Notes: generated from the sequence alone by a model not told the origin. A stretch of DNA of 64,000 bases from Thermodesulfobacteriota bacterium (GCA_024763535.1 JANTFH010000001.1:7337-71336), one strand, 5' to 3'. Counted from the stretch's first letter, positions 8,687 through 60,292 are shown. Translations and numbers: made by a program.

Positions 8687-9505
8687 TCATAGATTCTGAG
8701 AGTAATAGACGATTGCATGATCATATCTGAAATCCGTGCTGCCGTCAGGGTCGCAGATGGAAATTGGTTCGCCATGATGGTCAAAACCGAAAACGGTTTC
8801 CGGGGGAAGCCTGGGTATCGGGTCGTCACCGTTGACGTAACGGAGGTGTCGTTTTGCTCGAAAAGCCCGGTCCAAGCGGCAACCGACCCTGGGCTCACCA
8901 AAGGTCACAACCTCTTCGAAGGGATAGCGCAGAGCCGAGATGGTCGCCATGGCGGCACCGAGGCTGTGACCTGTAACCCATACCGGTAGGCCGTGGGTTT
9001 CCTGCTGCAGCAGCGCCAGGATTCCCTCCCACAACTTATCCACCTCGCGCAGGAAGCCGCTATGTACTTTCACTCTGCCACTCTCATCTACAGCCTTTTT
9101 CCTGAAGTCTAAGTCGGCAAGTATATCATTGCCGAGAAGCAGCCAATGCTGCGGATCGAATCCGGGCTGAAGTAATCTGCCGAATAATTTATCAAATGAA
9201 TTGGCCCTTGAGTCGGAAAGGTTCTCTTTAAGCTGTGAACCTCTGAATGCCAGGATAGCTTTATCCGGCCAAACGGCGAGAAAGGCTTGAGCTCCGTGTT
9301 TGTCAAAGAGGTATAAACTTCGTACTCCCAAGCTGTTGATATGCTCCTTGAGTTCAGTCTCCTTGAGGTATGCGGCATGAGACATGTGCGCCAGTATTGC
9401 CGCCCGATTTTCAACCCATTTTTGATTGAAATCCTCCAGGTCACGGATCTTGGGCATCAGGGGGAATCTTTCGGGATGGAATACGGCGGCAAATGATTTA
9501 GACAT
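8687..9505 (-). CDS. Lipase class 3 family alpha/beta hydrolase
   Basis: 272 aa with a GHSLGAA nucleophile-elbow motif (VWVTGHSLGAAMATISAL) in Lipase_3-like context. Confidence 0.75.
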   Translation of the reverse strand: MSKSFAAVFHPERFPLMPKIRDLEDFNQKWVENRAAILAHMSHAAYLKETELKEHINSLGVRSLYLFDKHGAQAFLAVWPDKAILAFRGSQLKENLSDSRANSFDKLFGRLLQPGFDPQHWLLLGNDILADLDFRKKAVDESGRVKVHSGFLREVDKLWEGILALLQQETHGLPVWVTGHSLGAAMATISALRYPFEEVVTFGEPRVGCRLDRAFRAKRHLRYVNGDDPIPRLPPETVFGFDHHGEPISICDPDGSTDFRYDHAIVYYSQNL

Positions 9506-49475: not shown

Positions 49476-49545
49476 GTCTAACGTTCAGGATCACGGGATG
49501 AGAAACGCGCGCGTTTCTCAGTACCGTGGGTCCTCTTGTTCGCCA
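49476..49545 (-). repeat. attC-like recombination site / hairpin overlapping the 3' end of the methylase gene
   Basis: Minus strand reads GGCGAAC-aagag-GGACCCACGGTACTGAGAAACGCG|CGCGTTTCTCATCCCGTGATCC-tgaac-GTTAGAC. This fits R''-5nt-L''/L'(imperfect, bulged)-5nt-R', with GTTAGAC matching the GTTRRRY core. The mate heptamer GTCTAAC recurs at 48101-48107 after the permease. Confidence 0.4.
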
Positions 49546-50351
49546 TTTTTTTTCAGGTAATTTGAAATTACTACCTCGGTAGTTCCTTTTCTGTGTTTTG
49601 ACGAAGACGCGAGCCGACTGAACCTACGTACCGTCATCTGTTGCCAATATTTGGCTTGATACAATTCGTGAATGCAGTGGTGGTCTGCATTGGATATGAA
49701 AATACTTACTCCGCGTCTGGCAGCTTTCGCAAGACAAGCTGCAAGGCGTTGTTGGTCAGCCCATGAGAAGATACGTTCATTATACTTGAGAAAGTTATTA
49801 TTGTTATGGCGTACGGTATAGGGAGGGTCTATATATAAGAAATCACCAGTATGGGCTTGATCTATTGTGTCTGCAAAATCGCATGAGGAAAGGTTTGTGT
49901 TTTGCAAAAGAGCGGACACTTCTTCAAAATTATCTGATGGTAGAACGACCTTCTCTTTTGTTCCTTTCGGAACATTAAAGACACCCTGCAAATTGACCCT
50001 GTAGAGGCCGTTAAAACATGTTCGATTCAAATATATGAACCTCGCGGCCTGCGTGGCTATCGACTGCGGAGATTGCTGCCGAATATGGTAATAGTAATCA
50101 TGGCAGTGCAATCGGTGATGTGTCAGGAGATGACGTTTCACCCTGCCAGGCACATCTCGCAATGCTTTGTAGGTAGATATTAATTCCTCATTAAGATCAG
50201 ACAGGATTGCAACCTTGGGTTGCAAGTGAAAGAATACCGCTCCACTGCCTAAAAATGGCTCAATATATCTTTTTGCATTCTGTCGTAGCCATGTGTCGTA
50301 CCCGGATACAAGCCAACGCTTGCCTCCTGCCCATTTTAAGAATGGTGTCAT
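49518..50351 (-). CDS. Dam-like N6-adenine DNA methyltransferase (D12 class)
   Basis: N-terminus FLKWAGGKRWLV...EPFLGSGAVF and catalytic DPPY (LYIDPPYTV), collinear with E. coli Dam. Confidence 0.85.
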   Translation of the reverse strand: MTPFLKWAGGKRWLVSGYDTWLRQNAKRYIEPFLGSGAVFFHLQPKVAILSDLNEELISTYKALRDVPGRVKRHLLTHHRLHCHDYYYHIRQQSPQSIATQAARFIYLNRTCFNGLYRVNLQGVFNVPKGTKEKVVLPSDNFEEVSALLQNTNLSSCDFADTIDQAHTGDFLYIDPPYTVRHNNNNFLKYNERIFSWADQQRLAACLAKAARRGVSIFISNADHHCIHELYQAKYWQQMTVRRFSRLASSSKHRKGTTEVVISNYLKKNGEQEDPRY

Positions 50352-52678
50352 TCTGCCACCTCTTGATTTGAGGCTGCGAGATCCTCTGGGTTAAGGCGTC
50401 CCATAAACTCCTCATAGATATAGTCAATATATTCAAAATCAATTGGTTTATAATGGCGTTTTTCAGTTGCGTGAGCAGGTATCCTCCTCAGTTCATTGAT
50501 CCGTTCCATCCATCGGACATTCTTTGAGTAACCCTTTTCTCCTGGTTCAGGAATGTCGAAAAGAGATTTGAATATATTCCAATGAACCTTGTTCTCAACG
50601 ATTTTTTTGTATTCGATGAAATCAAGGTAGTTTTCTAATGGGAGCCTATCCTCATCGTCATCATCAAGTGATTTTTCATAAGCACGCGTTTTGATTTTCT
50701 TGTCAATTACGCCTTTGTTCCAGTATGCATCACCATCTGTCCCATATTGTTGTTTGAATGTGGCGAATATTGTTTTTTGCACATGAATATTGAGTTCCTT
50801 AAGTTTCTTGTCGGCATCGTCAACAAGTTCCTCTGATTGTCCTTTTACCCATTCGTCCATACCTTCTGGAGAAAAATCAGAGAATGATTCACAAATCATT
50901 TGGCAAAGACGGTAATAGTATTCACGTGGACCACCCGATCCAAATTGAACCTTGAAGCGTTTCTCTATTTGGCTTGCGGTTGCTTCGCTGAGCCACAGCA
51001 GGATGGGATCCATGTACTCTTCGACCTCCGAGACTAGATCATTGGGCTCAAGCTCTCTCGCAGACAATCCTTTGTTGGATTCCATATAATCAACTAGTGA
51101 ACTAAACAGCTTTAAGTATGCCTGTAGCGCAACGTTTGTACATAGATAGCCTTGGCGACCAGATTCCCACTGGGTTACATTAGCGTTCGCCAGTAGTTGA
51201 AAGAAACTGTTCAAAGCCGATCGTGCACGATCGAGAGTCGCTGTGTCGTTCGTTCCGCAGAGCACTCCCGGGGCAAATTCTTTCTTCTTTAGTATAGCTT
51301 CACCAACCAAACCAGATCTACGAAGTCCATCTTTCAGAGCTGGTACTGTTAAACATGTTTTCTCTGTAGGAGAGATTCCCTGTTGAGTCACCCGACCATA
51401 GAGAGGTTCGCCTATATCGTTATTCAATAATCCAATGAGCCTGGCGCTTACAGCACCAATTCGTTCTGTCGGGCGATCTGACCCCCATTTCAATTCTCCT
51501 TCTAAATCATCCAACAAGGTTTTGGGTACGGATTTTTGCTCATGATTAATTGTAACAAAAAGGTTGGCCTCTTCTTCTTTCTTCAAGTTTTCGAAAGCGA
51601 CAACCATAATATTTTGATTCAGGTGTTTGTCTGATAACGGGGCGTATCCATAGAGTCTGTGCTGTCCGTCAATAATCCAAGCAGATCTGTATTGAGACGG
51701 CAAATATAGGTTCCCAAATATAACGTTCGTCTCTTCATCTTTGGCGACGTGTTCAAAGCGACATTTGCGAGAGAAATTCACAAGAATATTTGTAGGGAAG
51801 AATCCACCGCCATGAATAAAGCGAGAAACCTGGCGAAGCCGTGTTCTGCTAACAAGTCGCTGGTAGGATGGTGCTCCAGCAGGATCATTCAGGGATCGGT
51901 GGTTCACAAATGCAATTTTAAGCATTTGCTTGGGCGTTGAGACAAAAGAATAGAAAACTTTTCCTCCAAGTTTGCCCCTTACAGCGGGTACATGAATACC
52001 GTCCATCTCAGGTATCTTCTGGTCTTGCAGAAATTCAGCTAAGAACTGAAAGCGTGCTGCCGCTCTGAGGTGATCGGCAATTTGCACGTAATACCTCAAT
52101 TGCTTTTCCGTTATGATATTGATGCGTGCTCCAGCCGCACGTTGCCTATCCGGTTGAGACCATGCAATGTTGCTTGTTACAAATAGCCAGATAATCTTCG
52201 GCTTGTAATGAGGGCCATAATGCTTCTTTATCGCGTTTGCGATTGGGCTTTTAAGGTTTGCAAACTCCTCTATGTCTTTTTGTAAGCTTCGGCGAGTGAT
52301 GCGGGCGGAAGATTTACATTCGGTGACAACGACAGTTTCGTCGTCTTTTGCTAATACATCAATCTGCTTCGTATAAGGATCAGCACCTTTGCGCTTGATT
52401 GTAACCTGAAAGTTTCTTCCCTCGCTAATTTCAGGATAGCCAAGCAAATGAAAGAGGTACCATACTTTGTTTTCCAGTTTTTCGTCATGGGACCATGGTT
52501 TGCGTATGCGAGTTTTGATCTTCAGCTCTTTATCCACTTCCCATCCATCGTCAATATATTCTTGGACGCTAGATTTCAGAACAGAGAGTTCTTTATATGC
52601 TTTTCTTCGCTTGGCGGCCTCTCGCTTTAGCTTCTTGCTGTCTGTGTATATTGAATTTAGCCATTCTGTATCTGGCAT
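50348..52678 (-). CDS. Large DGQHR-domain protein with an N-terminal PD-(D/E)xK nuclease-like module, translationally coupled to the Dam-like methylase
   Basis: 776 aa. N-terminal D...E-x-K motif (IDVLAKDDETVVVTECKSS). DGQHR motif (WIIDGQHRLYGY) within a DndB/ParB-like segment (GGGFFPTNILVNF...FVTINHEQK). ~350-aa C-terminal region without a recognisable motif. Stop overlaps the methylase ATG (ATGA). Confidence 0.7.
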   Translation of the reverse strand: MPDTEWLNSIYTDSKKLKREAAKRRKAYKELSVLKSSVQEYIDDGWEVDKELKIKTRIRKPWSHDEKLENKVWYLFHLLGYPEISEGRNFQVTIKRKGADPYTKQIDVLAKDDETVVVTECKSSARITRRSLQKDIEEFANLKSPIANAIKKHYGPHYKPKIIWLFVTSNIAWSQPDRQRAAGARINIITEKQLRYYVQIADHLRAAARFQFLAEFLQDQKIPEMDGIHVPAVRGKLGGKVFYSFVSTPKQMLKIAFVNHRSLNDPAGAPSYQRLVSRTRLRQVSRFIHGGGFFPTNILVNFSRKCRFEHVAKDEETNVIFGNLYLPSQYRSAWIIDGQHRLYGYAPLSDKHLNQNIMVVAFENLKKEEEANLFVTINHEQKSVPKTLLDDLEGELKWGSDRPTERIGAVSARLIGLLNNDIGEPLYGRVTQQGISPTEKTCLTVPALKDGLRRSGLVGEAILKKKEFAPGVLCGTNDTATLDRARSALNSFFQLLANANVTQWESGRQGYLCTNVALQAYLKLFSSLVDYMESNKGLSARELEPNDLVSEVEEYMDPILLWLSEATASQIEKRFKVQFGSGGPREYYYRLCQMICESFSDFSPEGMDEWVKGQSEELVDDADKKLKELNIHVQKTIFATFKQQYGTDGDAYWNKGVIDKKIKTRAYEKSLDDDDEDRLPLENYLDFIEYKKIVENKVHWNIFKSLFDIPEPGEKGYSKNVRWMERINELRRIPAHATEKRHYKPIDFEYIDYIYEEFMGRLNPEDLAASNQEVAE

Positions 52679-52857
52679 GTCATTTATCTCCTCTATTTGT
52701 GGCGAACATTGTTAATAACTGGAAAAAGTATGTTATATTTTATAACTGTACGATTTTTCCATAAAATTCGATATCAAATTTAGAGACATGGAAGAATCTT
52801 TCCATGCTATCAATTTTCTCTAAGTCCATCTCTTTGTTGTAGTGCTACCACATACAT

Positions 52858-53135
52858 TATGGAAAATAAATCAAAATTTACGTCGAACCCTCAACTCAAA
52901 TTGATGGATCAGGTGCGGGAAACGTTGCGTTATCATCATTACGCTTATTCGACTGAAAAAACTTATTGTCAGTAGATTACACGCTATATCTGTTTTTTAC
53001 GATAAAAAACATCACCTCCGAGATATGGGCGCTATGGAGATCTAGCGTTATTTGTTGCATCCGGCATCACCTGAGCATGTTGTCGCTACGACTCAGCGGC
53101 AGGCATTGAATGCGCTGGTTTTTCTCTCTCCTCTC
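52858..53135 (+). pseudogene. Decayed N-terminal fragment of an integron-type (IntI/XerD-like) tyrosine recombinase
   Basis: Reads MENKSKFTSNPQLKLMDQVRETLRYHHYAYSTEKTYCQ-stop-ITRYICFLR-stop, then after frameshifts TQRQALNALVFL. This is collinear with the IntI N-terminal SAM-like domain (..[32 protein letters not shown]...QALAALLFLY). No catalytic domain follows. Confidence 0.55.
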
Positions 53136-53199
53136 AGGTTTTATCTCCCACCTTTTTATATAAGAAAATTCCGGCCGAAAATTTTTTTTATCACCTCTC

Positions 53200-53228: not shown

Positions 53229-53394
53229 TTTTTCCAGAAGGCGGAAAGAGGCCTTTATGGATTGTTATGAAAGATGAAATCACTTGGTCTTTCAGGTGGT
53301 TGAAGGATGTCCGGCCAGGAATTGAAAGTTTCCATCGGACGTGGGGCCGGATAAATTTTAACCCTAAAAATTTTTATTAAAGGAGGGAATGGTT

Positions 53395-53841
53395 ATGTGG
53401 ACAAGAGTTAGTGATATTGACCGGATGTACGGGGCTATGGATCTGCTGCGCTCGCACATGAATCGACTGTTCACCGATTACGACAGAGGCTTTGGTGATG
53501 AGTTCGGCTGGAGGGTTGCCGAAGCCGCGCCGCGGACAAATCTTTACGACAATGGAGATCAGTTTGAGGTTCGAGCGGAGGTCCCGGGTTTAAACAAGGA
53601 CGATCTGAAAATTATGATTCAGGGGAACTATCTCGAACTCAGCGGCAGCCGCAAGTCCGAGGCTCCTGAGGGCTATAAAGCCCATCGGGTGGAACGGGGT
53701 GATGCCAGCTTTACTCGCAGTTTTACTCTACCGTCCGATGTCGATGTGGATAAGGTTGAGGCCGGTTTGCAGAACGGTATCCTGACGCTCACCTTGCCGA
53801 AGGCCGAGGCGGCCAAACCGAAACAGATCGGTATTAAGTAA
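53395..53841 (+). CDS. Hsp20/alpha-crystallin family small heat-shock protein
   Basis: Alpha-crystallin domain (FEVRAEVPGLNKDDLKIMIQGNYLELSG...GILTLTLPK). ATG 53395 is 7 nt after a GGAGGG SD. Confidence 0.85.
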   Translation: MWTRVSDIDRMYGAMDLLRSHMNRLFTDYDRGFGDEFGWRVAEAAPRTNLYDNGDQFEVRAEVPGLNKDDLKIMIQGNYLELSGSRKSEAPEGYKAHRVERGDASFTRSFTLPSDVDVDKVEAGLQNGILTLTLPKAEAAKPKQIGIK

Positions 53842-53883
53842 TAATAATTTTAGGCGAAAACTTTATTAATGGAGGTTTGAGTC

Positions 53884-54270
53884 ATGAGTGAAAATAAAAA
53901 AATAGCGACCCGCAGTGAAACCCTGGCCGAGCGAAGCCGTGAGATTCCGGTTATCTCGCCTATGGTTGATATTTATGAAAATGATGATGAAATCCTGCTG
54001 CACGCGGATATGCCCGGAGTGGCCAAGGAAGATATTTCGGTAAATGTTGATAACGGCAAACTCCTGATCTCCGGGGTGCGCAGTCTCAAGATCTCCGGCG
54101 CCGCTAACTGGGAGGAGTTTGGTGATGTTGAGTACCGGCGTACCTTCTCGGTGCCTCAGAGTATTGATGTTGCCAAGGTCAATGCCGAACTTAAAGACGG
54201 GGTTTTGAAACTCCATCTTCCCAAATCAGAAGCGGCCAAACCGCGCATGGTTGAAATTAAAGCGGCTTAG
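53884..54270 (+). CDS. Hsp20/alpha-crystallin family small heat-shock protein (second copy)
   Basis: ILLHADMPGVAKEDISVNVDNGKLLISG...GVLKLHLPK. Confidence 0.85.
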   Translation: MSENKKIATRSETLAERSREIPVISPMVDIYENDDEILLHADMPGVAKEDISVNVDNGKLLISGVRSLKISGAANWEEFGDVEYRRTFSVPQSIDVAKVNAELKDGVLKLHLPKSEAAKPRMVEIKAA

Positions 54271-54405: not shown

Positions 54406-57400
54406 CTAGAGCATATCCTTTATTTTACCCCGTGAAAAAAACGGATAGAGGGCCGGCAGGACGAAGAGGGTGAGTAGCGTCGCACTGACGAGGCCGCCGA
54501 CGATGACGGTTGCCAGAGGTTTTTGAATCTCGGCGCCGATGCCGTTTGAAAGCAGCATCGGGATAAGACCCAGGGCCGAGGTTGCGGCCGTCATCAGCAC
54601 CGGCCTGAGGCGGGATGTGGCCCCGGCAAAGATTGCTTCCGGGAGTTTGAGGCCGCCGCTGAGGCGCAGGTTAATGCTCTCCACCATGACCACCCCGTTT
54701 AAGACGGCGACCCCGAAAAGGGTGATAAAACCGACCGAACTGGGCACCGAAAGATACTGCCCCGATACGTAGAGGGAAACCACGCCGCCGATTACAGCCA
54801 GGGGCACGTTCATCAGAATTAAAAGCGCCTGACCGATGGAGTTGAAGGCAAAATAGAGGAGCAGGGCGATTAAGGCGAGAGAGAAAGGCACCACCAGAGC
54901 CAGCCGTTTCTGGGCCCGCCGCTGATTTTCAAACTGGCCGCCGATAGCTACCGAATAGCCGGGTGGTAATGCAACCTGAGCCGCGATAGCCGTTTGAATA
55001 TCGCTGACCACACTTCCCATATCACGATTCTTTATATTGGCCTGGACCACCACCCGGCGCTGAACATCATCCCGGCGGATTTGGGGCGGGCCGGATTCGA
55101 TGGCGATGGCGGCAACATCACCGAGCCGAACCAGGGCCCCGGTGGGTGACTGCAGACGCAACTCGGCAATGGTTCGGGGATTGTCGCGGAAATCTTTTTC
55201 GAGGCGCACATAGATATCATAACGTTCATTACCGTTGATGATCTGGCCCGCGGCCCGGCCGCCGAGGACGTCCCGAACCAGGTTCATAACGTCGCCTACG
55301 GCCAGGCCGTAGCGTGAGAGGCGGCGGCGATCCGGGCGAATGACGAGCTGGGCTTCCCCGGCGATCTGCTCCATGGCGACATCACGGGTACCCTCGATAC
55401 TCTGTACAACTTTGGTTATCTCCCGGCCTTTGGCCGCGAGTACGTTCAGTTCCGGGCCGAATATTTTAATTGCGAGCTGCGCTTTGACCCCGGAAAGCAG
55501 TTCGTCAACCCGGGTGGCGATCGGTTGGGAGAAGTTCAGCAGAAGCCCGGGAAACTGTTCCAGTCTCATCTCCATCATCTCCTGTAACTTCTGCCGGTCT
55601 GGAGCACTGGTCCACTCTTTTGCCGGTTTTAGGCCGACAAAAATCTCAATATTATTGACGGGCTCAGGGTCGCCGCCGATCTCGGCCCGGCCGATCCGGC
55701 TGGAGGCGTAAGTGACTTCCGGAAATTCAAGAAGCATGGCTTCCAGTTTCGGAGCCACCGCCAGGGCGGTATCAAGGCTGGCCGACGGGGCCAGAGTGAC
55801 CCGCAGATTAAGTGTTCCCTCCTCCAGCTCCGGCACAAATTCGGTGCCCAGTTGTGGGATCAATCCCATAACCGCGATAAAAACTATAAGTGCGGCGCCG
55901 ATTACTGTTTTTCGATGGTGCATGGTCCAGTTAAGACCCCTTCGGTAGAGCCAGGCGAGGGGTTTTAAGAGCAGGCTTTCGCGTTCTCTGATACCGCTGC
56001 GGAAAAGATAGGTCGCCAGTGCCGGAACAATGATTAAGGCGACCATGACCGAGGCGATAATCGCGATAATAATACTGATTGCCAGCGGCTGGAAAAGTTT
56101 GGCTTCGACACCTTCAAAACTGAACAGCGGCATGAAAACGACAAGAATAATCGAGGCGGCAAAAAATATCGGCCGGGCCACCTCCTTGCCGGCCTCCTGC
56201 AGGCGCAGGGCGATCCCCCGCCGGTCCCGGGTTACGTCGTGGGGGTCGGAATCATCCCCGGCAGTATTGCCGGGGATGTCCTGCTTGTGAACCGGATCGG
56301 GGTGGGAGAGGTGTTTGAACATGTTCTCGACCATCACCACCGAGCCGTCGACGAGCATGCCGATAGCCACCGCCAGGCCGCCTAATGACATCAGGTTGGC
56401 GGAAAAACCGAATTGCGCCATCACCATCAGAGCGATGCCGATCGAGATGGGAACCGAAATCAGCACCAGCAGAGTGGCTCTTAAATTCATCAGGAAAAGG
56501 GCGAGAATAACAACGATAAAAATGAAAGCCAGAGCCAGGGTATGGACGACCGTGCGTACCGCTTTTTCGATCAGGTCGGCCTGATTGTACATAACCTTGA
56601 ACTCCACTCCCTGAGGCAGCGCCTGGCGGATCAGATCGATGCGTGAGTTGATACCGTCGATGGTGGCTTTGGTGTTGGCGCCCATGCGTTTCAAAACGAT
56701 TCCCGAGACCACTTCGCCCCGGGATTCCGCCTCACCGTCGGCGTTTCGGCCGGTTACGGTTACCGCCCCCTGACGGATTTCGCTGCCGAATTCGACCTTG
56801 GCTATATCGGCGATCCGGATAATTTTGCCGGCGATGGTTTTCAGCGGAATTTCGCGGATCTCCGTCAGGCCGGTGCGGCCGTGGCCAAGCCAGCCGACAC
56901 CCCGGATAACCAGCTGCTCCTGACCCCGGTTCAGATACCAGCCGCCGGCATTCCGGTTGTTGTTCTCCAGCGCCTGAAAAACATCGTCCTGGGTCAGTCC
57001 GTAGGCGAGCATCCGGTTGGGGTTAAGGTTTACCTGATATTGGCGCACACTGCCGCCGAAAGAGAGAACATCAGTGATGCCGTCAACCGGCATCAGCAGC
57101 AGTTTTACGACCCAGTCATTGAGACTGCGCAGTTTCATCGTATCATAATCAGAATCGGGCTCAGCGATCAGCAGATATTGGTAGATCTGGCCGAGACCCG
57201 AGGTGTTGGGCCCCATTTCCGGAATTCCGACCCCCTGCGGGATCAGCTCTTTGGCGCTCTGCAGACGTTCGAAGACCAGCTGTCGGGCAAAGAAAATATC
57301 GGTCTTCTCTTTGAAAACCACAGTGACTCCGGAGAGGCCGGTTTTAGAGATTGAACGGACCTCTTCAACATCCGGCAGGGCATACATCACCGACTCGATG

Positions 57401-57603
57401 GGGAAGGTAATCAGTTGTTCGACCTCGGCCGCCGCCAGGCCCGGAGCTTCGGTATTGATCGACACCTGAATATTGGTGACGTCGGGAAAAGCATCAAGAT
57501 TTAAGCGCGGAATCATGAAAAAAGCCGCGATAGTCAGTGTGAACAGAGAGATAACCACCAGCAGACGGTTGCTCACGGCCCAGTCAATTATTTTATTTAA
57601 CAT
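54406..57603 (-). CDS. czcA: Heavy-metal efflux RND transporter, CzcA/CusA family
   Basis: 1065 aa with 12 TM and two large periplasmic loops. HME-RND signature in TM4 region (ALGMLVDGSVVMVEN). Confidence 0.85.
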   Translation of the reverse strand: MLNKIIDWAVSNRLLVVISLFTLTIAAFFMIPRLNLDAFPDVTNIQVSINTEAPGLAAAEVEQLITFPIESVMYALPDVEEVRSISKTGLSGVTVVFKEKTDIFFARQLVFERLQSAKELIPQGVGIPEMGPNTSGLGQIYQYLLIAEPDSDYDTMKLRSLNDWVVKLLLMPVDGITDVLSFGGSVRQYQVNLNPNRMLAYGLTQDDVFQALENNNRNAGGWYLNRGQEQLVIRGVGWLGHGRTGLTEIREIPLKTIAGKIIRIADIAKVEFGSEIRQGAVTVTGRNADGEAESRGEVVSGIVLKRMGANTKATIDGINSRIDLIRQALPQGVEFKVMYNQADLIEKAVRTVVHTLALAFIFIVVILALFLMNLRATLLVLISVPISIGIALMVMAQFGFSANLMSLGGLAVAIGMLVDGSVVMVENMFKHLSHPDPVHKQDIPGNTAGDDSDPHDVTRDRRGIALRLQEAGKEVARPIFFAASIILVVFMPLFSFEGVEAKLFQPLAISIIIAIIASVMVALIIVPALATYLFRSGIRERESLLLKPLAWLYRRGLNWTMHHRKTVIGAALIVFIAVMGLIPQLGTEFVPELEEGTLNLRVTLAPSASLDTALAVAPKLEAMLLEFPEVTYASSRIGRAEIGGDPEPVNNIEIFVGLKPAKEWTSAPDRQKLQEMMEMRLEQFPGLLLNFSQPIATRVDELLSGVKAQLAIKIFGPELNVLAAKGREITKVVQSIEGTRDVAMEQIAGEAQLVIRPDRRRLSRYGLAVGDVMNLVRDVLGGRAAGQIINGNERYDIYVRLEKDFRDNPRTIAELRLQSPTGALVRLGDVAAIAIESGPPQIRRDDVQRRVVVQANIKNRDMGSVVSDIQTAIAAQVALPPGYSVAIGGQFENQRRAQKRLALVVPFSLALIALLLYFAFNSIGQALLILMNVPLAVIGGVVSLYVSGQYLSVPSSVGFITLFGVAVLNGVVMVESINLRLSGGLKLPEAIFAGATSRLRPVLMTAATSALGLIPMLLSNGIGAEIQKPLATVIVGGLVSATLLTLFVLPALYPFFSRGKIKDML

Positions 57604-57772
57604 ATTTTTTTTCTCCAGGAGATAATCATAAATTCGTAAAAAGTCACGTGACTACTAAGTAGAATATTCAGCTGCGAGGCTCCGAAAAGTTGATGAATGA
57701 GGCGTACATGGAAGTCCGCCGCAGTAACGAAGATTTTTCGAGAACAAAGCAGGTGGGCTTTTTACTTAGCCA

Positions 57773-59047
57773 TCAATGGTTGTGAGGGTCGAAGCCGCCT
57801 TTTGCAAGTTGCGAAGCGATAAAAAAAGCTCCTTCAACGACAACCCGGCTACCGGCGGCAACCCCGGTTATCTCCTGTAAGTTCCCGAAAGTCCGGCCCC
57901 GGTCGACTTCGTGGGCCTGGTATTCACCCGCTTTCTCTTCAATAAATATGGTCCAGTCGCCGTCGCCGCCGCGCATTAAAGCGGTTTCGGGAACGGCAAG
58001 AACGGGTTCAGAGGCCGGTAAAGAGAGATAGACATCGACAAACATGCCGGGGTGGAGCTTGTGTTTTTCATTGTCAACCAGCAGGCGCACGGTTCGGGTG
58101 CGGCTCAGCGAATTGATGGTGTGTTCCTGCTGACTGACGACGGCCGGGTAGGAACGGTTGTCAATCATGATCCGGGCTTTGGTGCCGGGAGCAAGGTCAA
58201 AGGTCAGGTTCGGGGTCAGATAAGCCTCGGCCCAGAGATTTCGTTCATCGGCCAGCTGTAGCAGCTCCTCCCCGGCGGCGACCCGTTGACCCTGTTGAAA
58301 ATCATCCCTTAAGACTGTACCGCTGATGACCGCTTTCAATGTGTATTCGCCCAAAGTTGTCGAGTTGGCGGCAGTATTTTTAATCGCGCCGGCATCCAGA
58401 CCGAAGATCTTCAGGCGGCTGTAGGCGGCTTTATAATCCATCTCGGCCCGGATATAACGTTTGGCTCCGACCGTTTTCCGGCCCATTTTTTGTACCCGCT
58501 GCCACTCCTCGCGGACAACCAAAAACTCGGCCTGCGCGGCGGCCACGGTTTCCGCAAACAGGGTTACTAAAGGCTGCCCTTCTTCGATATGATCGCCGAG
58601 TGCAACATGGCGTTTAAGCACCACGGAATCGGTGCGGGGCGATACCAGATAGCTGGTGTAATCGTTGGCTTTAAGCTCGCCGGGGGTATAGATTTCGGTG
58701 GAGAGATTGCGGTATTCTAAAACTTCAACTTTGATGGCGGCGGTTGCCAGCTGGGTCGGTGACAATTTAACCCCGGCTTCACCCTCCTCGTGTTCATGCT
58801 CATGCGAACCGGGTTTTGTTGCGGCCGCGTCGTGGTGGTCATCTTCATGCTCTCCGGCAGGCTCTTCAGGTTCGCTGTGATCGGCCGGGTGGTCGTGATC
58901 TTTGTGATCTTCGTGATCGCTATGGATTTTTTCGGCGGCCGAAAGTTTTTTGCCGGCTGAATGTTGATGCTCGTCAGCGCTCAGGCCGATTGTCGTCAGG
59001 CTGAAAATGAGAGAAAAAATTATTATTATCTGTAAACTCGGTTTCAT
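57773..59047 (-). CDS. czcB: RND efflux membrane fusion (periplasmic adaptor) protein with a His-rich metal-binding N-terminal extension
   Basis: Signal peptide, then HQHSAGKK...HSDHEDHKDHDHPADHSEPEEPAGEHEDDHHD...HEHEHEE, then HlyD-like beta-barrel/lipoyl regions. Confidence 0.8.
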   Translation of the reverse strand: MKPSLQIIIIFSLIFSLTTIGLSADEHQHSAGKKLSAAEKIHSDHEDHKDHDHPADHSEPEEPAGEHEDDHHDAAATKPGSHEHEHEEGEAGVKLSPTQLATAAIKVEVLEYRNLSTEIYTPGELKANDYTSYLVSPRTDSVVLKRHVALGDHIEEGQPLVTLFAETVAAAQAEFLVVREEWQRVQKMGRKTVGAKRYIRAEMDYKAAYSRLKIFGLDAGAIKNTAANSTTLGEYTLKAVISGTVLRDDFQQGQRVAAGEELLQLADERNLWAEAYLTPNLTFDLAPGTKARIMIDNRSYPAVVSQQEHTINSLSRTRTVRLLVDNEKHKLHPGMFVDVYLSLPASEPVLAVPETALMRGGDGDWTIFIEEKAGEYQAHEVDRGRTFGNLQEITGVAAGSRVVVEGAFFIASQLAKGGFDPHNH

Positions 59048-59062
59048 GGTTTCCCCTGTTGT

Positions 59063-60292
59063 TTAGAGTTGATTGAAGATAGTGCTAAGATGTCCGCTCT
59101 GCAGATAGAGGTCGATCAGGGCCGTGTGGTAGAGGGCCTCAAGTTCGATGCCGGTACGCAGATTTTCATTCTGCTGCTGGCGGATGCGCAGGTATCCGGT
59201 GGTGTCAAGATCGCCGCTCTGCCAGTGTTTTTCCAGTAACTGTCGGCTTTGCTCACCTCTTAAGCGCATAATCTCCTGCCATTGTTTGTAACTCTGTTGG
59301 TACTCTTTCATAGTTTCTGCCGCCGCTTCAGCGGCAATCAGCTGCCGGCGTTTAAGTGCCTGATAACGGGCCTGAGTTACCACGATATCCTGGTTGGCGG
59401 CATCGGTTTCGGCGCTGAACGAGTTGAGTATATTTAAGGGGATGGAGAATGTCAGGGCGAAAACATTTTCCTCACCGTCTTCACCGGCGTTAAAACCTAT
59501 GGTTGGATCCGGTTTCGCCTGCTGCCGGGTCAGTTCGGCCGTATGTTTCCGGGCTTCCCAGTTGAGGCGGGCCAGAGCTACCCGGGGATGGTTGTCAATC
59601 AGTTTTTGCAGGTCGTAATTGGCGGCGGCAGACCAAAACTCTTCCGGAATCGGAGCCGCCGCTACCGACCACTCCGGCAGCTCTTCTTTGAGACGGGCCT
59701 CCGTCCGGCGCACCCGGATCCGGGCCGCAACCGTATTCTTCAGATTCTCGGAGAGATTGAGAAAGGCCAGTTCGCTGTCGATGAGACCGGCATCACCGGC
59801 CATCTGCCGCTGTTTTACCTGCTCCGCCAGGGCGGTCATGGCATCTTTCTGCTGCAAAGAGAGAGCCGCGGCCTTTCCGGCGGCCTGCCACTCGGCTAGA
59901 AGTTTCAGAATTTCTGCCGTTTTTTCTAAGGTTTTAAGTTTGAATTCGGTTTCGGCGGCCGTCAGCTCTGCCTGACTCTGCTGAGTGCGAATCCCGCGTT
60001 TACCCCAGATATCAAGGGTCTGGCTCAGGCCGATCCGGTAGTTGTTGTCATCGCCGTTGCGTTCATATTCGGTTTCAAATTCCGGATTATAGAGCGGTTG
60101 CTGCCGGCCCGCGGCGGTTAATCTCAGGTGCTCCAGATTCTTCCGGGCGACCACGATTTCCGGGTTCTGGTCGATCTGAGAGATAAGTCTGGAAGTCCAG
60201 CTTTCCGTTGTCTGGGCCAGGATCTGTCCGGGATTGCTAAAGATCAGTAAAAACAGAATGATTACAAGACCTTTTATTGTTTTTTTAGACAT
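59063..60292 (-). CDS. czcC: Outer-membrane efflux protein (TolC/CzcC family)
   Basis: 409 aa, signal peptide, two OEP-type repeats. Sits upstream of czcB and czcA in the same orientation. Confidence 0.75.
   Translation of the reverse strand: MSKKTIKGLVIILFLLIFSNPGQILAQTTESWTSRLISQIDQNPEIVVARKNLEHLRLTAAGRQQPLYNPEFETEYERNGDDNNYRIGLSQTLDIWGKRGIRTQQSQAELTAAETEFKLKTLEKTAEILKLLAEWQAAGKAAALSLQQKDAMTALAEQVKQRQMAGDAGLIDSELAFLNLSENLKNTVAARIRVRRTEARLKEELPEWSVAAAPIPEEFWSAAANYDLQKLIDNHPRVALARLNWEARKHTAELTRQQAKPDPTIGFNAGEDGEENVFALTFSIPLNILNSFSAETDAANQDIVVTQARYQALKRRQLIAAEAAAETMKEYQQSYKQWQEIMRLRGEQSRQLLEKHWQSGDLDTTGYLRIRQQQNENLRTGIELEALYHTALIDLYLQSGHLSTIFNQL

Follow-up and report, generated by a model that had tools for sequence, protein, structure and literature searches.

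The pairing of a DNA methylase with a nuclease is the classical logic of restriction-modification (R-M) systems, and fusions of a ParB-like domain to a nuclease are known from the Type IV enzymes GmrSD and BrxU as well as from SspE. Here we describe a two-gene unit in which a large protein, with a predicted restriction-endonuclease fold, a DGQHR/ParB-like domain, a helical region and a putative HEPN domain, is encoded directly before a Dam-family adenine methylase. The unit lies on the minus strand of a stretch of 64,000 nucleotides from a Thermodesulfobacteriota bacterium (GCA_024763535.1, JANTFH010000001.1:7337-71336); this whole stretch is called the window below, and positions are counted from its first nucleotide. 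Domains of the DGQHR family have the ParB/Srx fold, and their DGQ(H/Q)R loop is the counterpart of the nucleotide-binding motif (PMC4619093). In DndB, SspE, GmrSD and Menshen NsnA the ParB-like domain, behind which all four have a helical domain in common, is regarded as a sensor NTPase, DUF262 being the sensor NTPase that activates the fused nuclease in SspE and GmrSD (PMC12065111). Binding of both ATP and GTP in vitro has been reported for a DndB-like protein (PMC12704722), and fusions of ParB-like COG1479/DGQHR domains to HNH, PD-(D/E)xK and HEPN nucleases were linked to R-M systems (PMC3632139).

With Type II R-M systems such as DpnII (DpnM/DpnA plus R.DpnII) the unit shares a Dam-family methylase beside a PD-(D/E)xK nuclease, a compact and mobile organisation and, presumably, a modification that protects host DNA. 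Unlike DpnII, MboI and Sau3AI, to which its nuclease has no similarity, it employs a protein of 776 residues with ParB-like NTPase-type and HEPN domains, which is probably nucleotide-dependent. GmrSD, BrxU and SspE, which consist of a DUF262 ParB-like NTPase and a DUF1524 His-Me nuclease and are Type IV or phosphorothioate-sensing systems, resemble it in having a ParB/Srx-fold DGQ(Q/H)R domain and a helical domain fused to a nuclease, as well as in the sensor-NTPase logic (PMC4619093, PMC12065111). They differ in that the window nuclease is an N-terminal PD-(D/E)xK one, to which HEPN is added and for which no DUF1524 or HNH match was found, in that it is linked to its own methylase, and in that its ParB-like domain is of the DGQHR (TIGR03187) branch and not of DUF262.

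DndB of Dnd phosphorothioation and DpdB of the 7-deazaguanine Dpd system are related through the PF14072, TIGR03187 and DpdB models, matched by the window protein over residues ~229-539, and all of them partner a DNA-modification enzyme. However, the window protein reaches 70.5 bits where the DndB model TIGR04172 requires 450, and 71.2 bits where the DpdB model NF041060 requires 300; no dnd genes were found among conserved neighbours, there is no conserved TGT-like partner (TGT occurs once among 139 neighbours), and neither dndCDE nor dpdA/dpdC adjoin. The restriction-endonuclease and HEPN domains are extra to both relatives, and the partner here is a simple adenine methylase. Swt1-type HEPN fused to ParB was listed in Table 1 of the 2013 HEPN survey of Anantharaman et al., as "ParB (Saro_3948)" among Swt1-like HEPN fusions (PMC3710099); the fusion is of a like kind, but the paper lists it only as such, with no function, restriction-endonuclease domain or Dam partner. 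The CRISPR ancillary nucleases Can2, Card1 and Cdn1 are alike in the fold of the N-terminal domain, at 12-19% identity, and unlike in that the window protein lacks both a CARF domain and a CRISPR context.

Our screen with PADLOC 2.0 returned no model for the pair and none for the large protein other than a partial DpdB match, which agrees with the initial annotation, where this architecture was not recognised as a named system. Our literature searches turned up neither an account of the three-domain effector or its obligate pairing with a Dam-family methylase nor any experiment. HEPN domains in R-M contexts and the ParB-HEPN fusion were already catalogued computationally in 2013 (PMC3710099, PMC3632139), and we do not regard the pair as a categorically new system.

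Domain architecture and conserved motifs

The effector gene occupies 50348..52678 on the minus strand, as seen from the open reading frame (ORF) listing, its homologues and domain matches, and the gene of the 277-residue methylase follows at 49518..50351 (-), exactly where the initial annotation had placed both. The two ORFs are real genes, since more than 2,800 homologous protein clusters of the large protein are present in a set of 5.8 billion proteins and the best 120 homologues are full-length (about 775 residues, 62-89% identity). These best 120 come from Desulfuromusa, Kiritimatiellales, Puniceicoccales, Thiodiazotropha, Coriobacteriia, Ignavibacteria, Deferribacterales and others. Reading of the junction, ...GCAGAATGACACCA... 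or GCAGA-ATGA-CACC, confirms the translational coupling that had been claimed: the TGA stop of the effector gene and the ATG start of the methylase gene share the ATGA at 50348..50351 (-), and a Shine-Dalgarno-like AGAGGTGG stands just upstream of the methylase start.

The three peptide strings on which the domain reading was originally based are all present in the 776-residue protein. One of them, IDVLAKDDETVVVTECKSS, lies at residues 106-124 within a PD-(D/E)xK restriction-endonuclease-fold domain (residues ~61-215, 52034..52498 (-)). An AlphaFold2 model was built from a family alignment of 22 sequences (mean pLDDT, predicted local distance difference test, of 77.7), in which residues 1-215 and 440-770 are well defined and the loops of the central domain poorly defined. 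Foldseek search of the N-terminal domain against the PDB retrieved the PD-(D/E)xK nuclease domains of Cdn1, VC1899, Can2 and Card1, and structure search shows a fold like that of the non-specific cleavage domains in FokI/BspD6I and Can2/Card1. As modelled, the N-terminal part is thus confirmed as a restriction-endonuclease domain, with candidate catalytic residues E69 (52472-52474), D107 (52358-52360) and E120-C-K122 (52313-52321, all on the minus strand) placed in the fold, and its nearest structural relatives in the predicted structure are non-specific cleavage modules. The nuclease reading proposed from the motif alone is in this way supported by fold searches. Each of the four catalytic positions is kept in about 87-93% of the members, and all four in about 82% (56 of 68).

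The DGQHR domain (DndB/DpdB/DUF262-type, ParB/Srx fold) extends over residues 232-528, that is 51095..51985 (-), with the DGQHR motif itself at 51656-51670. The other two strings belong here, IIDGQHRLYGY at residues 335-345 and FVTINHEQK at residues 374-382. Assignment to the DndB-ParB-like group, already made from these strings, is borne out by 143.8 bits to NCBIfam TIGR03187 against a cut-off of 58.85 and by a match to the Pfam DndB family PF14072 (4e-10); PADLOC DpdB gives a partial match (2e-21), the PADLOC/NCBIfam DpdB match spanning residues 227-539. Q273-R274, DGQHR 337-341, E370, F374xxxN378 and Q381 are invariant in 68 of 68 members. After the DGQHR domain comes a helical middle region, most of which (up to residue 528) is within the TIGR03187 match.

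At the C-terminus, for which about 350 residues had been left unassigned, the helical region can be separated from a following domain of residues ~615-765 (50384..50836 (-)), so that the region is no longer wholly unassigned. We assign this last domain, from its motif and its predicted four-helix-core fold, to the Swt1/Abi2-type HEPN with an R-x4-6-H motif. N728 and R731-x4-H736 are invariant, the R-x4-H being found in 67 of 67 members, in the form RRIPAH here (50471-50488 (-)) and LRNIAAH in divergent members. HEPN_Swt1 (PF18731) was the only recurrent Pfam family among the 64 C-terminal domains of the family that were scanned; it matches six of these relatives, all below the gathering score of 27.5 bits, with a best E-value of 6.4e-5. 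The window copy has no Pfam HEPN match that reaches threshold, its isolated C-terminal 162 residues gave no Pfam match, and therefore membership in HEPN is, at the level of sequence, transitive. Profile searches of PDB sequences with the full-length and C-terminal queries returned chance matches only. With the C-terminal-domain profile against 1.84 billion representatives, the best 150 matches fit this family or its fragments by length and position, and the ten of them that were checked by Pfam showed DndB/HEPN or nothing, with no new architecture.

The Novosphingobium aromaticivorans pNL1 protein WP_011906619, which is probably the Saro_3948 entry of the HEPN survey, aligns over residues 44-757 of the window protein at 32% identity, including the R-x4-H. 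In one homologue of 803 residues (P0019), about 29 residues within the HEPN domain (SLDDEDEDRLPLENYLSFIEYKKIVENKTNWPLFKPVFD) are duplicated in tandem, at alignment columns 691-729.

The 277-residue partner is a Dam-type N6-adenine DNA methyltransferase, as had been annotated (D12 class, alpha group): it scores 245.6 bits with TIGR00571 (cut-off 114.85), matches Pfam PF02086 (MethyltransfD12) at 4e-50, and has MTase_II, "Type II methyltransferase", as its best PADLOC model (3.8e-94). Its FxGxG motif, here FLGSG (50241-50255 (-)), and its DPPY motif (49818-49829 (-)) are intact. DpnM and the Dam of E. coli are known GATC methylases. Since the best solved relative of the window methylase is M.DpnII-1 (DpnM, 2dpm; 8.8e-46), followed by E. 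coli Dam (5e-33), a GATC specificity would be plausible for it; to the E. coli Dam equivalog model it scores 150.9, below the cut-off of 441.

Linkage to the methylase and mobility of the pair

A scan of genome collections with the single protein gave no matches; a profile scan of species-representative genomes succeeded and confirmed 547 relatives, from which we kept 80 loci with 38-87% identity over about 15 phyla. Carriers available in culture include Stenotrophomonas daejeonensis JCM 16244 (L032), Lysobacter cavernae KCTC 42875 (L034), Luteimonas aquatica (L031), Gordonibacter sp. 28C (L042), Caulobacter vibrioides T5M6 (L074) and Polaromonas sp. A23 (L056), the last with a degenerate nuclease. 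A Dam homologue adjoins the effector gene in 71 of the 80 loci, in 68 of them immediately downstream on the same strand (38-82% identity) and in three immediately upstream. Three more (L050, L054 and L066 in our numbering of loci) have a divergent D12 methylase of 375-390 residues that overlaps the effector stop codon, and L067 has, in the downstream position, a non-homologous MT-A70-family methylase of 221 residues. Some methylase is consequently adjacent in 75 of the 80 loci. The other five are L009 and L026, which end at a contig edge, L051, where the gene is disrupted, and L057 and L061, without an adjoining methylase. The possibility that the pair would prove to be unlinked in other genomes, considered when it was first noticed, does not agree with these counts.

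Clustering of the flanking ORFs of the 80 loci revealed no third conserved gene, and the methylase is the sole conserved partner. The replacement of the methylase by a non-homologous one, together with the changes of gene order, would be expected were the two genes linked in function by a DNA mark and not by a protein-protein interaction. The identity matrices of the large protein and the methylase correlate with r = 0.41, a value reached in 0 of 999 permutations, and there are clear exchanges of methylase despite this correlation.

The family is patchily distributed, homologues from different phyla being 60-89% identical. The 139 nearest neighbours belong to 129 different Pfam families, and the pair often lies among housekeeping genes. 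Defence genes already known (SoFic, MADS components, RmrA, CapP, Type III and Type IIG enzymes) make up a minority of the neighbours. DNA similarity to the closest relative, a Desulfuromusa metagenome-assembled genome, covers 49488-52696 of the window, which is just the two genes, and then stops. The pair is a self-contained, horizontally mobile unit. A full-length homologue was found neither in phage records nor in E. coli complete genomes, and the collections searched held the full pair on no plasmid or phage, plasmids carrying only paralogues of 31-32% identity.

One such paralogue is on the conjugative plasmid pNL1 of N. aromaticivorans (NC_009426.1, 118066-130204), 32% identical to the window protein and with no methylase adjoining. 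Next to it are a second, short DGQHR protein, a radical SAM protein, two ATP-binding proteins, and genes for DUF736, DUF1173 and an SOS-response peptidase, and this locus may be a different DGQHR-based system.

A proposed mechanism and its alternatives

We propose, as the rather probable explanation of the domain content, that the pair is an R-M-like two-gene defence module, with a DNase/RNase under nucleotide control as its effector. The Dam-family methylase would place N6-methyladenine on the DNA of its host, probably in GATC sites, and so protect it. The DGQHR/ParB-like domain with the helical region would, like those of DndB, SspE and GmrSD/BrxU, be a switch that binds nucleotides or a sensor of DNA, and this switch would license the FokI/BspD6I/Can2-like PD-(D/E)xK domain to cut unmarked (foreign) DNA, in this manner presumably defending the cell from phages. 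With an RNase-type activity, the Swt1-type HEPN may provide a further line of defence, possibly by abortive infection. The initial annotation had allowed for a restriction-like or a modification-dependent defence module. The former agrees with the linkage of the pair across genomes; the latter is the less likely half, because a modification-dependent enzyme beside its own methylase would be suicidal, and being encoded with one the large protein cannot be simply of that type. In the window GATC is not avoided (351 sites observed against 319 +/- 17 expected), and such a count in a host sequence is uninformative, speaking neither for nor against the proposal.

A number of observations weigh against it. 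About nine of 68 members are without one or more of the PD-(D/E)xK catalytic residues (L052, L053, L056, L013, L042 and L039 among them), and they keep the full length, the DGQHR and HEPN motifs and the adjoining methylase. Within the subclade of L052, L053 and L056, where the glutamate and/or aspartate are lost, the degenerate nuclease domain is 67% identical, no less than the HEPN domain, so that it is still constrained, perhaps because it binds DNA, and DNA cleavage by this domain cannot be the sole selected activity. No recognisable target-recognition domain was found in the large protein, and in the comparison across loci no domain diverges specifically where the methylase is of a different type. 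Structure search of the ParB-fold part gave no matches, the fold not being recovered because the model is of low confidence there. Only L057 and L061, both alphaproteobacterial, have complete flanks and no adjoining methylase, and their catalytic motifs are intact; the plasmid paralogues, that of pNL1 among them, also have none. The effector gene precedes the methylase gene and is translationally coupled to it, with no controller protein evident, which is awkward for safe establishment in a new host. Finally, our literature searches found no experiment on any member.

The loss of catalytic residues leaves room for a different explanation, in which the pair is an Ssp-like modification-sensing abortive infection system: the ParB-like domain would read N6-methyladenine or its absence, the HEPN RNase and/or the NTPase/nickase would be the indispensable effector that shuts the cell down or degrades transcripts, and the restriction-endonuclease fold would mainly bind DNA and cleave it in some members only. 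We regard this as possible, though on the whole unlikely. It would account well for the fact that the HEPN R-x4-H and the DGQHR motif are invariant where the catalytic residues of the nuclease have been lost with the methylase kept, as well as for the constraint on the degenerate domain, and it has precedents in the sensor NTPases SspE and GmrSD (PMC12065111) and in HEPN domains proposed as back-up suicide effectors in R-M contexts (PMC3710099, PMC3632139). On the other hand, the frequency with which the four catalytic positions are kept, singly and together, argues that DNA cleavage matters in most members, and the HEPN domain of the window protein, a putative RNase, stays below all Pfam thresholds. 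We hold it improbable that the DGQHR protein regulates the modification enzyme or assists it as a cofactor, in the manner of DndB/DpdB, and that the pair is an epigenetic module instead of a restriction one. DndB is reported to repress the dnd operon under modulation by ATP, and DpdB to be an ATPase required for base insertion (PMC10853773, PMC12839542), and the middle of our protein does match both models, yet it remains far below their equivalog cut-offs (70.5 vs 450 and 71.2 vs 300 bits, as given above), a regulator has no need of two extra nuclease-type domains with conserved motifs, and the occurrence of an unrelated family in the place of the methylase is more in keeping with a shared DNA mark than with a specific protein cofactor.

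An equally improbable view is that of a purely selfish addiction element, with post-segregational killing and no net defence benefit, kept because the nuclease turns toxic when methylation is diluted. Compact pairs scattered over phyla in unrelated contexts, often among housekeeping genes, would suit such an element, as would the AT-rich composition relative to the host and the decayed integrase fragment that adjoins. Addiction does not exclude defence, however, the classical Type II systems being both, some relatives adjoin known defence genes, and the full pair was seen on no plasmid or phage in the collections searched. As to a housekeeping ParB-like factor of chromosome or plasmid partition, or a Dnd/Dpd component placed by chance beside a solitary Dam, database names such as "DGQHR domain-containing protein" or "DNA sulfur modification protein DndB" would point that way; we reject both on context and scores and consider them extremely improbable, given that parA, parS, dndCDE and dpdA are not conserved neighbours and that a patchy spread with such identities between distant phyla, unrelated neighbours and a methylase linkage of 75/80 are hardly expected of a housekeeping gene.

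Taking the proposed R-M-like module further, we may tentatively suggest that it represents an unrecognised R-M class, in which the ParB-like switch would read adenine methylation and gate both the DNase and the HEPN RNase, the RNase/NTPase arm being the indispensable one, as is hinted by the nuclease-dead but otherwise intact subclade. If true, restriction would here be coupled to abortive infection, and the pair would parallel SspABCD-SspE with methylation as its mark. Should the defence function be confirmed, the pair would be a widespread system, present in at least 547 species-representative genomes of about 15 phyla and in more than 2,800 clusters, and absent from PADLOC 2.0. It would also offer a two-gene model for ParB/DGQHR nucleotide switches that couple recognition of DNA modification to nuclease activation (cf. 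DndB, SspE, GmrSD/BrxU and Menshen NsnA), while DNase and RNase-type domains in one restriction subunit would permit a direct test of the proposal that HEPN domains are fail-safe suicide effectors in R-M. For the 776-residue effector family, the annotation "DGQHR domain-containing protein / DndB" is misleading.

Sequence context of the island

The module was first noticed as an AT-rich, cassette-like island. The composition is as claimed, with a GC content of 0.40-0.45 over 50-53 kb against about 0.50-0.55, or some 0.52, in the flanks, and DNA homology does stop at the gene ends; the cassette part finds less support, for general scans, made with no dedicated attC model, found around the island no attC consensus and no direct or inverted flanking repeats. 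Upstream of the pair and divergent from it, at 52859-53141 (+), is the decayed N-terminal SAM-like domain of an integrase (phage/integron) with two in-frame stops and one frameshift; its merged reconstruction matches PF13495 at 3.3e-19 and no catalytic domain was found after it. This fragment is absent beside the module in all 80 related loci, and is therefore a local relic and not a part of the module. The idea of an integron gene cassette finds no support in these scans.

The upstream non-coding region at 52679..52858 (-) presumably contains the operon promoter, judging by position only; promoter and terminator consensus scans gave matches at background frequency, the promoter-like matches of this region included. 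At the other end, a perfect palindrome of 10+10 nucleotides, GAGAAACGCG/CGCGTTTCTC, at 49500..49519 (-) overlaps the methylase stop codon. It was not called by the consensus terminator scan because it has no T-run. At the equivalent site the Desulfuromusa relative (L001) has a perfect palindrome of 48 nucleotides (~9144-9191) and L002 a shorter one (~9160-9182), and the three differ by compensating base changes; the palindrome is probably the 3' end hairpin of the operon.

The module is flanked by an amino-acid permease gene on one side and two Hsp20 genes on the other. It belongs to a contig of 128,867 bases from a metagenome-assembled genome, whose TrpB-like gene has close relatives named Candidatus Tharpella or Deltaproteobacteria. 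Exact look-ups of the flanking proteins, intended for an empty-site comparison, gave no match. Synteny of the nearest relative ends about 2 kb before the module. A related genome, L082, follows the window only as far as an M23 peptidase gene at ~47.5 kb, and the wider stretch of 47.5-54 kb may for this reason be variable. The two Hsp20-family genes are in tandem just past the island (53389-54270 (+)), and beyond them, at 54406-60292 (-), are a CzcA/CusA-type RND efflux pump of 1065 residues, its membrane-fusion partner of 424 residues and a third upstream ORF of 409 residues.

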